Positions 7,651 through 46,552 of a stretch of DNA of 64,000 bases are shown here, piece by piece. Position 1 is the first letter of the stretch. Each line of letters opens with the position of its first letter. The notes under the pieces were generated by a model that saw nothing but the letters and a program-made list of their open reading frames with translations, had not been told where the DNA came from and ran no database searches. A program made the translations under genes and the position numbers. Source of the stretch: Patescibacteria group bacterium (lineage in GTDB: Bacteria; Patescibacteriota; Doudnabacteria; UBA920); assembly GCA_023484515.1 (NCBI GenBank), contig JAMDAY010000019.1, positions 30,483 through 94,482 on the forward strand, in the 5' to 3' direction.

Positions 7651-7749
7651 TGAAGGCCGCCCTCTGGGATAATCTGTCTTAAGATTGATAATAGATGATG
7701 ATCATAGACTGATAATCTAAAGTTCGTTATTCCCAGAGGGCGGCCTTCA
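7651..7749. repeat. family B inverted-repeat element, copy B1 (19-bp perfect GC-rich arms TGAAGGCCGCCCTCTGGGA, AT-rich ~60-nt centre)
   Basis: Perfect terminal inverted repeat. Related copies at 15100, 48771 and 50849. A degenerate partial copy sits at 7578-7650. Confidence 0.75.
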
Positions 7750-7769
7750 AAACTCAGGCCTGTTGTAAT

Positions 7770-8222
7770 TTACACGCCCAGGGACCCTAACTGTTCCGCA
7801 ATGGCATTGCTTTGCTGTTCGGTTTGCTGCTTGTAGGCGGACCATAATTCTTCACTCCAGACTTCTATGCGGTTAAACAGGCCGGCAAAGACAATCTTCT
7901 TATTAATTTTGGCAAACTCCTTTAGGTAAGACGGCAAAATTATGCGCCCCTGCTTGTCCACTTCGCAGTCCATGGCGCCGGCTAGCATCAAGCGGGAAAA
8001 GGCGCGGGTATTGGCAGTGGAAATTGGCAGGCTGGCCAGCTTTTCCGCCAGCTTTTTCCATTCGTCCAAAGTGTATAAAAACAAGGAGTTATCCAATCCC
8101 CGGGTAACTACGACTTTGGCTTCCAATTGCGACCTAAACTTGGCCGGGATGGATATCCTGCCTTTGTCGTCTATGGTGCCTTGGTATTCGCCAATGAACA
8201 TAAAATTTTGAACAACGAACAA
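7770..8222 (-). CDS. mraZ: transcriptional regulator MraZ
   Basis: Duplicated DxxGR motifs (DDKGRISIP, DKQGRIILP). Confidence 0.9.
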   Translation of the reverse strand: MFVVQNFMFIGEYQGTIDDKGRISIPAKFRSQLEAKVVVTRGLDNSLFLYTLDEWKKLAEKLASLPISTANTRAFSRLMLAGAMDCEVDKQGRIILPSYLKEFAKINKKIVFAGLFNRIEVWSEELWSAYKQQTEQQSNAIAEQLGSLGV

Positions 8223-8434
8223 CTCCCCTAAATTTTCCTTTTAAATACGGGGAGAAGATTAATATACTGGATTTTGATTAAATCTCTAAAGCCATTAAAT
8301 TTTGTTTTAACTTGGGCATTCCGGTTTTAAAAACCCCATTTTTAGGAAGACTAGCGTTTTTAAGCTGATTTTGGCTTAAAAATTTGGGGATTTACAAACC
8401 CGGTGGGGAAAATGCCCAAGTTAGATTAAATTGA

Positions 8435-8475
8435 TTATCCACAAACTTTACCACTTATCCCCACTTTTATCCACT
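8435..8475 (+). promoter_or_regulatory. cluster of three co-oriented DnaA-box-like 9-mers (TTATCCACA perfect, TTATCCCCA, TTATCCACT) ~220-260 nt upstream of mraZ; a fourth (cTATCCACA) sits at 8603-8611
   Basis: Exact consensus 9-mer at 8435-8443. Lies in a ~700-bp AT-rich non-coding region. Confidence 0.4.
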
Positions 8476-8692
8476 TTTTACCATTACTCTGGTATTATAT
8501 ACCACTTTAAAACACCGGTCAAAGCAGTTTATATTAACCATTGTTAATATTATTCCTTATAATTAAAGTAAATATTTACTTAAATATTTAAGTAAATAAA
8601 AACTATCCACAAGTTTTCTCTAAAAAGTTTCCTTAACATAAATTTGTGCTTTATTACGACATATTTAAAATAAATAGTCCATTTTACAAGCA

Positions 8693-8722
8693 AAATAAAA
8701 AAACATCCTTGTTTAAGGATGT
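8693..8722 (-). terminator. rho-independent terminator (acatcctt..aaggatgt hairpin plus U-run on the minus strand)
   Basis: Perfect 8-bp stem with an A10 run on the plus side. Sits downstream of the SpoU methyltransferase gene. Confidence 0.55.
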
Positions 8723-8917
8723 TTGCCAGAATAAATAAAACTTCCTGGGATTAAGAGTAACGACAGCCACATTGCAACAGATCCAGCAAAGGAGGACGCC
8801 CCGGACTATCTGCTTAAAGATTGACAGATTGCTATCATTATCCGGTGATTAACAAATTACGGTCATAATCCGGTGATTAAAAGAGCACCATCGTTTGGAT
8901 GCGTCCGGTTAAAACCA

Positions 8918-9436
8918 TTACTGCAATTGCTGGGTTTTAAACCTGCTTCCGGAAAGCCAAAAGGCCGCAATACCGAAAGCCACGGAAACGTTAAGGCTTT
9001 CTTTTTGGCCGGACATGGGGATTTCTATAATCTGGTCGCAGAGCTTTAAAATGGGTTTGGGGATGCCTCTGGTTTCTTCGCCAAGGATTAAAGCCATCGG
9101 GAGTTTCGGTTTAGATTTATTTAATTCGACTGGGCGGCTGAAGCCTGCCCCTACATTGTTTTCCAGCGCTACGGTTCGCATTCCCCTATTTTTCAATTTT
9201 TTGATCAACCGTGAAACGGATTTGCAATATTCCCAAGGCACGAATTTTTCCGCGCCCAAAGCCACTTTGGCTATCTTTTTCCCGTTTAAATACTGGTCCG
9301 GGCGGCCGGTGTAGCCGGTCAAATAAATTTTTGTAACGCCAAATGCGTCCGCAATCCGAAAAATTGACCCCACATTGTAAAGCGAACGGATATTGTGGGC
9401 TATTACAAAAAAATCACGCGACTTTTTTAAGGCCAT
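8918..9436 (-). CDS. SpoU/TrmH-family RNA 2'-O-methyltransferase
   Basis: C-terminal LILGEETRGIP...SLNVSVAFGIA is the SPOUT knot motif. Confidence 0.75.
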   Translation of the reverse strand: MALKKSRDFFVIAHNIRSLYNVGSIFRIADAFGVTKIYLTGYTGRPDQYLNGKKIAKVALGAEKFVPWEYCKSVSRLIKKLKNRGMRTVALENNVGAGFSRPVELNKSKPKLPMALILGEETRGIPKPILKLCDQIIEIPMSGQKESLNVSVAFGIAAFWLSGSRFKTQQLQ

Positions 9437-9932
9437 ATCTTTTCCTGAAAAAGAAAAACCAAATTATATATATTATTGCCAGCAAGCCGTAATTTACAAT
9501 CATGGGAACCGTGTCGGCCCAGGAGACGGCGTAAGGGTTGTGGAAATTGGACAAGGGATAAAAGATAGGAGTGGAAAAATGGACTTTGTGCGTAAACACG
9601 TCCAAAAATATATGCAGCGGCCAGCCCCACATTGGCCAGTACATTTTTCCCCGGCGCAGCGCCAAAACAACCAGCAAAACCGCGGCAAATACCGCCAGGC
9701 TGTGGGTATAATTATAGCCGTAAACCGCAAAACCATAGGTCCAGGAATTTATTCCTTCCAAATGGCGGTGAATAGCGGCTGGATGGAAAATTAAGTAAGC
9801 GGACAGAGGGATAAATACCGACAAATCCGGCAGCAGCCCGAACAATACGGCAACAAACCGCCGCCTTTTTTCCGTACGGTATTTGTCATAAAAAGCCGCG
9901 TTAGTCCACAACGCGTGCGCAAAAACATCCAT
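9414..9932 (-). CDS. membrane-bound metal-dependent hydrolase-like (DUF457/YdjM-like) protein
   Basis: Polytopic, His-rich, with a generally similar pattern. Weak call. Confidence 0.4.
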   Translation of the reverse strand: MDVFAHALWTNAAFYDKYRTEKRRRFVAVLFGLLPDLSVFIPLSAYLIFHPAAIHRHLEGINSWTYGFAVYGYNYTHSLAVFAAVLLVVLALRRGKMYWPMWGWPLHIFLDVFTHKVHFSTPIFYPLSNFHNPYAVSWADTVPMIVNYGLLAIIYIIWFFFFRKRYGLKKVA

Positions 9933-10527: not shown

Positions 10528-10911
10528 TTACGCCAATTTTACGCTGCGCGCCAATACGTCCTTGACTTTCTGCATAATGTCGTCTACCGACTGGTCGCTC
10601 TTGAGCAAATAGTCGGTCGCCCCGGCTTCCAGGATTTTGCTGATGGTTTCCACGTCGCCCAAATTGGTAAGGACAATTACGGCTATCTTTGCGGTTTCGG
10701 GGTTAGCCTTAAGCTCCCACAGCACGGAAATGCCGTCCAGCTTGGGCATCATAATGTCCAAAAGCAGCAGGTCCGGCGCTATTTCCTTGGCCTTGGCCAC
10801 GGCATCTTCCCCGTCGTAGGCAGGGACCGGCTCATGCCCCGCGGCTTTTAACGCGTCGCAAAGGGAGTTGGAAATTAATTTGTCGTCCTCCGCGACCAAT
10901 ATTTTCGCCAT
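10528..10911 (-). CDS. single-domain response regulator (CheY-like receiver)
   Basis: ILVAEDD acidic pocket, LLLDIMMPKLDG phosphoacceptor region, and conserved T and K. Confidence 0.85.
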   Translation of the reverse strand: MAKILVAEDDKLISNSLCDALKAAGHEPVPAYDGEDAVAKAKEIAPDLLLLDIMMPKLDGISVLWELKANPETAKIAVIVLTNLGDVETISKILEAGATDYLLKSDQSVDDIMQKVKDVLARSVKLA

Positions 10912-15195: not shown

Positions 15196-15393
15196 CAACC
15201 CCATCGCCTCCTTGCGCAATGGGTACCCTTGAGCCCTTTCCGTATATCCGCAGATATCCGTATTCCGTAAAAATTCAGCCTTGCCAAAGCCGAATTTTCT
15301 TGATAAAATAAAGGTATACGAACGTATACCATATTAAAATAATACCCCTTAACAACTATTTCAGTAAAGCCCGGTTATCCACAATAAAAAACG

Positions 15394-16322: not shown

Positions 16323-16724
16323 ATTCCAAAATTCAGGATTACCCTTAATATTTACAGGCAATTTTGCGCTTCGCATAAAAATTTTATTGCAACCAATCTT
16401 CATCTTTGGACGCCCTATCTTTTAAAAACGTACCACTGGCGCAAAATTGCCTGTAAATATAACAAAGCCCGTCCCTGAAAATAATAAAATTACTTCCAAG
16501 GACGGGCTTGCCGCGGTACCACCTTGATTCCCGGCTGGCTGAAATTTAAGCTTCTTGATCAGGCAGCCGGACGCTCAATATCCATTTATACGGCTGGACT
16601 TCCGTTCCTATTTTAGGACAGCTCCCGGAGCGCGACTTCCGGTAGATGCTTTATAATATGCAATTGTAGGACTAATTGTAGCATAAGCAAGCACCCTGTC
16701 AATTGTGGATAAATATGCAACAAA

Positions 16725-26441: not shown

Positions 26442-26479
26442 TAATTAGTTCTATGCATAAGTATTATACCATATTTAAT

Positions 26480-26503
26480 TGCAGGGGCAGGTTTCCAAAC
26501 CTG
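26480..26503. repeat. perfect hairpin palindrome AGGGGCAGGTTTCCAAACCTGCCCCT abutting the 3' end of the transposase gene
   Basis: 11-bp perfect stem, read directly. Confidence 0.6.
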
Positions 26504-26506
26504 CCC

Positions 26507-27010
26507 CTAACGGATAATGGTATTTTTCGGATGATATTTATCCAATTTCCACTTTAAAGGATTGTTGATAATATATTCACGGATTTTATCCAAAGATTCT
26601 TCCTTACGGATAACATGGTCGTAAAAAGATTTGTGCCAAGCGAAATTATTATCCGTAATATGTATTGCTTTAGAAGAAACTCTTTTAAACGATCCTACCA
26701 TTTGTGATATCGACGGCCTCTTGTAGGGGCGGATAATATCCGCCCCTACATCGCCTATTACGATTATGCCATGCACGTGATTCGGCATCACCCTGAACAC
26801 ATCCAAACTTATGCCTTTATAATACTTCGGAATTTCTTTCCAAAACTTTTCCGCGATTTTTCCCCATTCGTTTAAAATCATTTCTCCTTTTATTACCTCG
26901 CCAAAACAACACCGCATATCCTTCGCGCAAACCGTGACAAAATAAAATCCCGGCCGGGAATAGTCGTATTGCTTTAAACGATTTGCTTTCCTTTGCGGCA
27001 ATCCCTCCAT
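26507..27010 (-). CDS. IS200-like Y1 (HUH) transposase / REP-associated tyrosine transposase-like protein
   Basis: HUH motif MPNHVHGIIVI and C-terminal catalytic-Tyr region WHKSFYDHVIRKEESLDKIREYIINNP. A 27-bp perfect palindrome lies inside the CDS at 26723-26749. Confidence 0.65.
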   Translation of the reverse strand: MEGLPQRKANRLKQYDYSRPGFYFVTVCAKDMRCCFGEVIKGEMILNEWGKIAEKFWKEIPKYYKGISLDVFRVMPNHVHGIIVIGDVGADIIRPYKRPSISQMVGSFKRVSSKAIHITDNNFAWHKSFYDHVIRKEESLDKIREYIINNPLKWKLDKYHPKNTIIR

Positions 27011-27022
27011 TATTCCTCAATT

Positions 27023-30424: not shown

Positions 30425-31438
30425 TTAATCCTGTTTGCCTGCCACAATTTTTGCCACCTGGCTTTTAATTGTATCGTTTGTAATTTTTATTGGCTGAAAT
30501 TTTTTAATTTTTTCCAGCCTTAATTCCAATTCGCGCCTGGTAAGCAAGCCCGCTTGCGGGCCGATCTTCTGGACAACGCTGCCGGCATTAACCGGCCCCC
30601 AGCGCAAGGCTTCTGCATGAGGCAGGCCGTAAATTAACGCGGCAATATACGCGGTGGTAAAGGCGTCGCCCGCGCCGGTAGATTCCACCCTCGGCCCGGG
30701 GAACTCTTCAATGTAATAAAATCCTTCTTCGCTGTAACTGTATGCCCCGCGCCTGCCGTCGGTCAAGGCCACGGCTTTGGGCCCCAACCGCAAAAGCCTG
30801 CTGCAAAGCTCTTCCGGGTCTTCAACATTCCCTACCCAGCTTTGGGCCTCTTGCACGTTTAAAGACAAAATGTCGGTGCGCTGCAGCATTTCCTGGTTTG
30901 CCTTTAGCCCCTTCCTCAACTGGAAAGTGCCTGGGTTAAAACCTAACTTAGCCTTGTATTTGTCTAAATATTTTCCCAAATCCTTATAAATTTTTTCAAA
31001 CCCCACGCCCATGCTGGTCAGATACACCCAATGGCTGGCCGGAAAATTGGGCAAGCTGTATTTGCGGTGTTCATGGTAGACAAAAATGGTGCGCTCGCCC
31101 TGATAGCTTATGACCGTAGACGCATTGGTCGGATGGCTGTCATTTTTAATGATAAACCTGGTGGACACGCCTTCTTTTTCCATTTTGTGCGCTATTTCGC
31201 GGCCGCCGCTGTCATGGGCCAAAACCGTATAAAAACCGGTGCTTAACCCCAAACGGGAACTGCCTACGGCGTTGTTTGCCGCATTGCCGGCCACGGACCG
31301 GTAATACTGGTCCACCGGCAGCTTGTCGCCCCAATTTAAAATTGCCTTTTTGCAGCCTTCAACGTTCTTAATCTCCACGTCATGTATAAGCAAAAAAGTG
31401 TCTATAGTCGCGTCGCCGATTGAAATAATGTCAAACAT
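30425..31438 (-). CDS. PfkB-family carbohydrate kinase (ribokinase-like)
   Basis: GAGDAFTTAYIAAL PfkB signature 2 and an N-terminal GG-like motif. Confidence 0.75.
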   Translation of the reverse strand: MFDIISIGDATIDTFLLIHDVEIKNVEGCKKAILNWGDKLPVDQYYRSVAGNAANNAVGSSRLGLSTGFYTVLAHDSGGREIAHKMEKEGVSTRFIIKNDSHPTNASTVISYQGERTIFVYHEHRKYSLPNFPASHWVYLTSMGVGFEKIYKDLGKYLDKYKAKLGFNPGTFQLRKGLKANQEMLQRTDILSLNVQEAQSWVGNVEDPEELCSRLLRLGPKAVALTDGRRGAYSYSEEGFYYIEEFPGPRVESTGAGDAFTTAYIAALIYGLPHAEALRWGPVNAGSVVQKIGPQAGLLTRRELELRLEKIKKFQPIKITNDTIKSQVAKIVAGKQD

Positions 31439-46474: not shown

Positions 46475-46552
46475 AAATTGGCCTTTAGTTTAGATAAATT
46501 ATACCACACTTTGCATATTAACTCCAAATTATAATCATTTTTATACTTTATG

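Follow-up and report, generated by a model that had tools for sequence, protein, structure and literature searches.

A probable MraZ operator, a solitary DnaA-box-like 9-mer and a predicted leader RNA hairpin upstream of the mraZ/dcw operon of a Patescibacteria group bacterium

The mraZ gene heads the cluster of division and cell wall (dcw) genes of a Patescibacteria group bacterium, and the DNA in front of it is the subject of this report. It occupies positions 8223-8917 of a 64,000-nucleotide stretch (hereafter the window: GenBank assembly GCA_023484515.1, contig JAMDAY010000019.1, forward-strand positions 30,483 to 94,482). An original prediction had marked it as a non-coding, AT-rich region with four co-oriented DnaA-box 9-mers and a long inverted repeat, and had offered three explanations: DnaA-dependent regulation of the operon, a DnaA-titrating site, or a secondary or remnant origin. 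That observation is real, and its interpretation is mostly wrong. Very probably, the mraZ/dcw operon is controlled from this region, and the clustered "DnaA boxes" would be the MraZ operator of an autorepressed mra promoter. The inverted repeat, judging from the pattern of change in its stems, is a structured hairpin of the predicted leader RNA and not a DNA site. The fourth 9-mer stands apart as a conserved element in its own right.

The predicted mra promoter and its putative operator

The four 9-mers lie where they had been placed, all on the plus strand. One, TTATCCACA at 8435-8443, is perfect, and the other three, TTATCCCCA at 8455-8463, TTATCCACT at 8467-8475 and CTATCCACA at 8603-8611 (given originally as cTATCCACA), each have a single mismatch, as scored against a general consensus (TTATCCACA/TGTGGATAA) from which the clade's own DnaA box may differ. 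Such matches, with at most one mismatch, are more frequent than chance would produce: there are 24 across the window, compared with 12.7 +/- 3.4 in shuffled sequences, none of 100 of which reached 24. Four fall inside 177 bp, against about 0.035 at the density of the shuffles, which is too many for a chance cluster.

Read on the minus strand, which is the strand of mraZ, three of the four 9-mers resolve into (A)AGTGG repeats downstream of a predicted σ70 promoter, Pmra (8494-8522, minus strand). This is the best site in a scan of the 1.8 kb from 7700 to 9500 and agrees with the consensus at 11 of 12 positions. Its -35 hexamer, TTGACC (8522-8517), is separated from the -10 hexamer, TATAAT (8499-8494), by a 17-nt spacer that itself contains AAAGTGG (CCAC at 8502-8505), and transcription is predicted to start near 8487, some 7 nt past the -10 hexamer. 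In full, the strand reads TTGACC-(17 nt, containing AAAGTGG)-TATAAT-accagagta-ATGG-taaaaa-GTGG-ataaaa-GTGG-ggataa-GTGG-taaagttt-GTGG-ataa, and the array begins 3 nt past the predicted start. Its core, GTGGATAAAAGTGGGGATAAGTGG (8451-8474), found by pattern scan, consists of three GTGG boxes with 6-nt spacers and holds the 9-mers at 8455 and 8467. The pattern GTGG-N6-GTGG-N6-GTGG has no other match on either strand of the 64 kb, for an expectation of 0.01. The units form a direct-repeat family at exact 10-bp steps, with further phased members in the promoter spacer (8502-8505) and at 8481-8484, where a degenerate box, ATGG, precedes the core array by 10 bp and would occupy about +3 to +6 of the transcript. 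The last proximal box, at 8435-8443, is TGTGGATAA on this strand, the perfect DnaA-box 9-mer; its GTGG (8442-8439) comes 12 bp past the previous box. The resemblance of the clustered boxes to DnaA sites arises because A/T-rich spacers of the ATAA type come after GTGG.

The cognate protein is encoded immediately downstream. The mraZ gene (7770-8201, minus strand) specifies 143 residues with a Pfam MraZ match of 7e-41, and most likely starts at the ATG at 8201 (MFIGEY...) rather than the TTG at 8222. It aligns without gaps to the MraZ proteins of Mycoplasma genitalium (9qlr) and Mycoplasma pneumoniae (1n0e), retains K13, R15 and R86, and carries two DXXXR motifs, DDKGR at residues 11-15 and DKQGR at residues 82-86.

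The layout of MraZ operators is already well known. The sites are GTG(G/T) repeats with 6-nt spacers, three in most bacteria and four in M. genitalium, where transcription starts within box 1, K13, R15 and R86 touch bases, binding is cooperative, and every box adds to repression; the MraZ octamer can also bind a single box as a ring, and longer spacers are tolerated (PMC12957436). The boxes of Bacillus subtilis, three copies of GTGG[A/T]G, are needed for repression (bioRxiv 10.1101/2022.02.09.479790), and those of Mollicutes read AAAGTG[T/G] (PMC8475190). In Escherichia coli K-12 (NC_000913.3, read directly), TTGACA-17-GTAAAC is followed by GTGGG-aaatt-GTGGG-gcaaa-GTGGG at a pitch of 10 bp, just before mraZ. 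The window shares with the mra promoters of these organisms the direct repeats of GTGG on the coding strand, the 10-bp pitch, the location at or just past the promoter, here a predicted one, the position of mraZ as first gene of the dcw cluster, and a cognate MraZ with the DXXXR motifs and base-contacting residues. It differs from them in having 5-6 boxes (up to about 8 phased positions in relatives) rather than three or, in Mycoplasma, four; in an array that extends into the spacer between -35 and -10; in one near-invariant spacer (GGATAA) and a last box offset by 12 bp; and in the long structured leader between operator and mraZ.

Conservation in relatives

A scan of species-representative genomes with the MraZ protein gave 80 loci, the closest of which, about 60 with 78-89% identity, are from Patescibacteria labelled Doudnabacteria. 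Anchored on the triple GTGG, these 60 or so loci form a gapless block of 135 columns. Conservation of 75-100%, in columns not forced by the anchor as well as those that are, marks the -35 element, the GTGG two bases before TATAAT, the (A/G)TGG at -10, the A-A before every GTGG, the GGATAA spacer and GTGGATAA at +32. For the repeats, the columns left free by the anchor are conserved at 85-100%. The degenerate box is conserved as TGG at -9 to -7, again in unforced columns, with the three bases present in 60, 59 and 52 of 60 relatives, and the A preceding each array GTGG is found in 55-61 of 61. At the final GTGGATAA position, GTGG is kept in 56-58 of 61 and ATAA in 46-57, and the motif is preceded by A in 32 and by T in 24. 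The promoter -35, the GTGG-N2-TATAAT arrangement and their spacing all recur. Farther upstream the DNA cannot be aligned, the sequence of the leader is not conserved, and anywhere from 49 to 377 nt separate the first array box from the mraZ ATG. The block as a whole tracks the mraZ promoter in every relative, whatever the upstream gene.

The original prediction had proposed checking whether the box cluster is conserved upstream of mraZ in relatives. The GTGG array at its 10-bp phase is; the identity of the 9-mers is not. A match to TGTGGATAA with no more than one mismatch is found, position for position in the alignment, in 12 of 60 relatives for the box at 8467, 36 of 60 for that at 8455 and 35 of 60 for that at 8435; what is conserved is AGTGG at its 10-bp phase and not the 9-mer.

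All the defining features of an MraZ operator that can be examined in silico, namely its place upstream of mraZ/dcw, the phased GTGG repeats, their conservation and the MraZ residues, are present, and on this ground the clustered boxes are filed here as the putative MraZ operator of the mra promoter. The promoter at 8522-8494 would initiate transcription near 8487 and drive mraZ-rsmH-ftsL-ftsI. The MraZ-binding units on the 10-bp pitch would comprise one in the promoter spacer, the degenerate one at +3, the three perfect ones from +13 to +36 and one more 12 bp on. MraZ, as the first product of the operon, would bind them cooperatively as an oligomer, one subunit per box on the same face of the helix, and in occupying the promoter spacer and the initial transcribed region would repress its own operon.

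Several points weigh against this assignment or limit it. Instead of being an MraZ box, the GTGG of the promoter spacer may be an element of the extended -10 kind. TRTGn is the extended -10 of Gram-positive promoters, and TGTGG, which resembles it, also directly precedes TATAAT at minus-strand positions 46503 and 17977 of the window; GTGG beside a -10 hexamer is thus not by itself evidence of an MraZ box. The GGATAA spacer and the ATAA past the last box are kept beyond what the published MraZ consensus requires, and the last box lies 12 bp, not 10 bp, from its neighbor, and together these points allow for a second protein over part of the array. Finally, the transcription start, MraZ binding and repression are here predictions for an uncultivated lineage.

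The solitary distal 9-mer

The fourth 9-mer, TGTGGATAG at 8603-8611 (minus strand; read there as cTTGTGGATAGtt), lies well outside the array, its GTGG being 89 bp upstream of the -35 element and 136 bp upstream of the first core box. Of 60 Doudnabacteria-like loci, 58 have an element of the form yTGTGGATArCT at 95-200 bp upstream of the array, for an expectation of 0.10 per region, and in one subclade it reads cGGGGATAAC, with GGGG in place of GTGG. Its position is steady regardless of which gene lies upstream or where that gene stops, and its distances cluster near -113, -124, -135 and -146, with a vector strength of 0.58 at an 11-bp period. This phasing is only suggestive, the loci being related and one cluster dominating (p ~0.006 on unique values). 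It is distinguished from the array boxes by T rather than A before GTGG and by ATAR after it.

The 9-mer is not confined to the close relatives. In a set of 17 more distant Patescibacteria loci, 5 carry a perfect TTATCCACA that faces the other way and lies 55-260 bp upstream of the array, and 2 more have a one-mismatch copy. In 7 other distant loci a forward TGTGGATGA stands beside the -35 element, as seen by eye in all seven and by the one-mismatch scan in four. The background for at most one mismatch in these distant loci is 0.1 per 420 nt.

The distal box is a separate conserved element, phased with the operator, and probably binds either a second protein, with DnaA as the leading candidate, or one more subunit of MraZ by way of a loop of about 130 bp. 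The two readings are not separable here, and each is to be held tentatively and to about the same degree.

DnaA acts as a transcription factor as well as an initiator, for example at dnaA and nrdAB in E. coli and at ftsZ in Caulobacter. On this reading, which is possible, 8603-8611 and perhaps also 8435-8443 are genuine DnaA boxes coupling dcw expression to the status of the replication initiator; it is compatible with the MraZ operator and does not exclude it. Of the regulation by DnaA that had originally been proposed, this much survives, the clustered boxes having passed to the putative MraZ operator. The presence of the distal box in 58 of 60 loci at clustered distances favors it, as do flanks (T before, ATAR(CT) after) unlike those of the array boxes, 97-100% of which have A before GTGG, and the recurrence of the full 9-mer, inverted or forward, in distant lineages above background. 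That all nine bases are retained, whichever way the site faces, is easier to reconcile with a protein that reads 9 bp, such as DnaA, than with one that reads the 4-bp GTGG. The element recalls DnaA-regulated promoters in being a single conserved 9-mer, identical or close to TTATCCACA, that lies near a cell-cycle promoter and faces either way in different lineages, and the same 9-mer is present at other promoters (see below). The distal box departs from those promoters, however, in lying about 120 bp upstream of the predicted start, beyond typical DnaA operator sites, and in that the first base of the box differs in most copies. Most Doudnabacteria copies in fact have one or two mismatches (TGTGGATAG, TGTGGATTA, CGGGGATAA), and the comparison was made with the general consensus, from which that of the clade may differ. 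Furthermore, the clustering of distances may partly mirror shared ancestry, a literature search linking DnaA boxes to mraZ returned nothing relevant, and the capacity of the MraZ octamer to bind a single box (PMC12957436) offers another reader for the same site.

That other reader would make the distal 9-mer an auxiliary MraZ box, captured by free subunits of the array-bound oligomer so as to close a repression loop of about 130 bp around the promoter. The GTGG is oriented as in the array in all 58 Doudnabacteria-like loci, the distance steps of about 11 bp are those expected for looping, and MraZ forms octamers or higher oligomers, rings on single boxes and tolerates longer spacers (PMC12957436). 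The flanking bases are, however, systematically unlike those of the array boxes, GGGG replaces GTGG in one subclade, and the 9-mer is inverted in distant lineages, which would not be expected of a reader of direct repeats. A further candidate role for the distal box, as the -35 element of a second promoter, was rejected on inspection, as no consistent -10 follows the box in relatives.

Elsewhere in the window, two more perfect copies of TTATCCACA are found at 15375-15383 and 16704-16712, so that all three perfect copies are intergenic. The former, on the minus strand, lies between a strong terminator hairpin and a promoter-like site (TTTACT-18-TATTAT) upstream of a gene for a DinB/IMS-family polymerase. 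In five relatives (loci L014, L026, L034, L049 and L053), a stand-alone response-regulator receiver gene is preceded, at about 60-90 nt, by TGTGGATA(A/T)C, which coincides with the -35 position of a TATAAT promoter; this suggests that the 9-mer marks a small regulon. The homologous gene of the window, at 10528-10911, lacks the site. A region of about 580 bp free of long open reading frames upstream of the enolase gene (26442-27022) carries two DnaA-like 9-mers of opposite orientation, at 26563 and 26586, each with one mismatch.

The leader RNA hairpin

From the predicted start to the ATG at 8201, the mraZ mRNA would carry a 5' untranslated region of about 285 nt (8202-8487, minus strand), within which the inverted repeat falls. 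The repeat is real and spans about 114 bp, and the coordinates first given for it were 3-4 nt off: the core arms are at 8309-8320 and 8411-8422, and the extended arms, at 8301-8320 and 8411-8430, are 85% complementary. Its minimum free energy (MFE) fold as minus-strand RNA (8308-8423) has an energy of -40.3 kcal/mol (z = -5.25), and none of 200 shuffled sequences folds as well. A basal stem, P1, pairs 8423-8411 with 8320-8308, and is followed by a 7-nt bulge, UUCCCCA (8410-8404), an upper stem, P2, from 8403, and an apical GUCUUCC (8351-8345).

A blastn search of the window and the 80 loci gave no second copy of the hairpin, the sole related piece being a 21-nt match in the leader of L009, and it was this match that led to a hairpin family. 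The family has nine members: the window, five relatives (L002, L009, L016, L017 and L020) and three metagenomic contigs (L082/L083, L084 and L085) located by a pattern of operator plus motif. Counting the window, the hairpin is thus present in 6 of about 60 Doudnabacteria-like leaders examined. The plan shared by the members runs from a basal stem, past a 5'-side bulge of 7-9 nt in which CCCCA is invariant, through an upper stem to an apical loop holding GUCUCCC, also invariant except for the GUCUUCC of the window copy; that copy also has an extra inserted hairpin. The MFE fold of each sequence gives the shared plan in 7 of the 8 further instances, the basal stem of L084 having been placed by hand.

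Alignment with MAFFT and RNAalifold misaligned the stems, and a structural alignment was therefore spliced by hand from the individual MFE folds. It contains compensatory changes at 12 of 12 stem pairs; 97% of its cells pair, a percentage inflated by construction, and none of 500 shuffles and no slid register approaches it. Variable stems around unchanging unpaired motifs are the pattern of RNA structure conservation, a contrast that the bias of hand alignment does not affect. About 0.53 Mb of DNA, or about 1.06 Mb with both strands counted, was scanned for the bipartite signature; one chance match aside, every occurrence is in an mraZ leader.

Searches of Rfam at gathering and E-value thresholds gave no meaningful match for the hairpin, for 8690-8917, for the whole window or for the 8 hairpin-bearing loci. 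The hairpin resembles the structured 5' leaders collected there in its location in a 5' untranslated region, its covarying stems, its invariant unpaired nucleotides and its single gene context; it differs from them in matching no family and in lacking the logic of a terminator or of Shine-Dalgarno sequestration. The latter, by way of the C-rich loop, was considered and rejected because the leaders inspected on this point (L002, L016, L017 and L020) have no Shine-Dalgarno sequence. The CCCCAC of the bulge is exactly complementary to GUGGGG, the operator box as transcribed, and the MFE fold of the full leader pairs the two, in a fold that is not itself significant (z = -1.7). Presumably the hairpin acts after transcription, through stability, processing or protein binding; with low confidence, it may be assigned as a protein-binding or stability element of the leader.

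It is improbable that the inverted repeat is instead a mobile palindromic element (a miniature inverted-repeat transposable element or a repetitive extragenic palindrome), a DNA operator, or a terminator or attenuator, with no function in the leader RNA. Leaders of relatives do differ greatly in length, and long ones fold where most short ones do not, as though hairpins had been inserted. Leaders that extend less than about 85-90 nt past the last box mostly have no significant fold, and longer ones mostly do (z about -2 to -12; 33 of 55 have z < -2), the long exceptions including L013, L037, L057 and L062. Against such an origin, the hairpin is single-copy in the 64-kb window, no U-run follows it, and its signature is confined to mraZ leaders apart from the chance match; moreover, stems that differ by species around invariant CCCCA and GUCUCCC are unlike terminal repeats or a protein-bound palindrome.

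Between operator and mraZ there are also other long hairpins, composed of short motifs that recur: GCTGA...TCAGC (GCGGA...TCCGC in L027) and CAGAT...ATCTG, in the leaders of L010, L013, L015, L059, L077 and L027, and of L002, L009 and L011. By eye, these look like separate, possibly covarying, structured families.

The origin and titration hypotheses

As first noted, the region is AT-rich, with a G+C content of 21% at 8500-8700 and 32% at 8223-8917, compared with 47% for the window, and like oriC, datA and DARS clusters it sets several DnaA-like 9-mers of one orientation (all four, in this case) beside such DNA, here a stretch of 19-21% G+C. That it is a DnaA-titrating locus of the datA/DARS type, or an origin, secondary or remnant, that would unwind at the AT-rich stretch, is nevertheless barely credible: the cumulative GC skew falls monotonically from 0 to -2.58 across the 64 kb, with no inflection, minimum or sign change at the site; origin-linked genes such as dnaA and dnaN are not among the neighbors, and a Pfam scan of the DnaA-sized open reading frames (396-522 residues; smaller ones were not all scanned) detected no DnaA; the clustered boxes are poorly kept as 9-mers; their strict 10-bp spacing is that of MraZ sites; the AT-rich stretch is not conserved, relatives having a G+C-containing terminator in its place; and the block follows the mraZ promoter independently of the upstream gene. 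Gene orientation had been said not to switch here, and it does not, the SpoU-like methylase, mraZ, rsmH and penicillin-binding protein genes all being on the minus strand, as are nearly all long open reading frames on both sides.

The upstream spacer and neighboring genes

The region was correctly described as non-coding, with no complete open reading frame of at least 40 residues in 8202-8917. The spacer is bordered by mraZ and, at its far end, by the stop of a SpoU-family methylase gene (8918-9436). Within the 19% G+C stretch between the distal 9-mer and the -35 element, a repeat search identified a perfect 26-bp palindrome of A and T only, TATTTACTTAAAT/ATTTAAGTAAATA (8573-8598), which sits where relatives carry the G+C-containing terminator hairpin of the upstream gene. 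The working terminator of the window, which would end the methylase transcript, is farther upstream (8694-8724, minus strand) and has a 10-bp stem (hairpin 8724-8701) and a T-run; it can also be seen in the predicted RNA fold. Between it and the methylase stop lies a 28-nt tandem direct repeat (8819-8874), the copies of which, GATTGACAGATTGCTATCATTATCCGGT and GATTAACAAATTACGGTCATAATCCGGT, are 79% identical, in a stretch of about 190 nt that is missing from relatives. In 8725-8917 there is no significant fold (z = -1.15), and blastn found no similar sequence in the window and the 80 loci; for want of both fold and conservation a small RNA was rejected, and the segment is taken as the 3' untranslated region of the methylase gene. 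The AT-rich stretch likewise has no second copy by blastn in the same sequences.

Downstream of mraZ, and also on the minus strand, are rsmH/mraW (MraW methylase, 3e-106), an open reading frame of the size of FtsL and a class B penicillin-binding protein gene (transpeptidase, 3e-77), which make up the mraZ-rsmH-ftsL-like-penicillin-binding-protein order of a dcw cluster. Further neighbors encode a YdjM-like protein, a PCC-domain protein, a response regulator and a histidine kinase. The window has no tRNA or tmRNA genes.

Concluding remarks

The main result of this work is a correction. Where "DnaA boxes" are encountered upstream of mraZ, they should be read on the strand of the gene, and the 10-bp phase of GTGG checked, before an origin or DnaA is invoked. 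The finding is for the most part ordinary, and it is the solitary 9-mer and the leader hairpin, which go beyond the textbook case, that raise it above routine annotation.

It also provides a well-supported candidate MraZ operator in the candidate phyla radiation. To our knowledge, these bacteria have very few transcription factors and no genetics, so that their regulation can be approached in few ways other than by mapping cis-elements. No characterized MraZ site has as many boxes as this array, a point that bears on how the MraZ octamer opens onto DNA.

A bolder proposal is that this Patescibacteria dcw operon receives two inputs new for mraZ, a solitary phased DnaA box some 120-135 bp upstream of the MraZ operator and an uncatalogued structured leader RNA; as a whole it is doubtful. 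DnaA at the distal box would couple dcw transcription to the initiation of replication, possibly by contacting or looping to the MraZ-promoter complex. The leader RNA would add a layer of post-transcriptional control, perhaps by binding a product of the operon or through pairing of its CCCCAC bulge with the transcribed GUGGGG box. In either event the hairpin family is a candidate new cis-regulatory RNA and, if the solitary 9-mer is truly a DnaA site, it would represent a direct link between replication and division in minimal bacteria.

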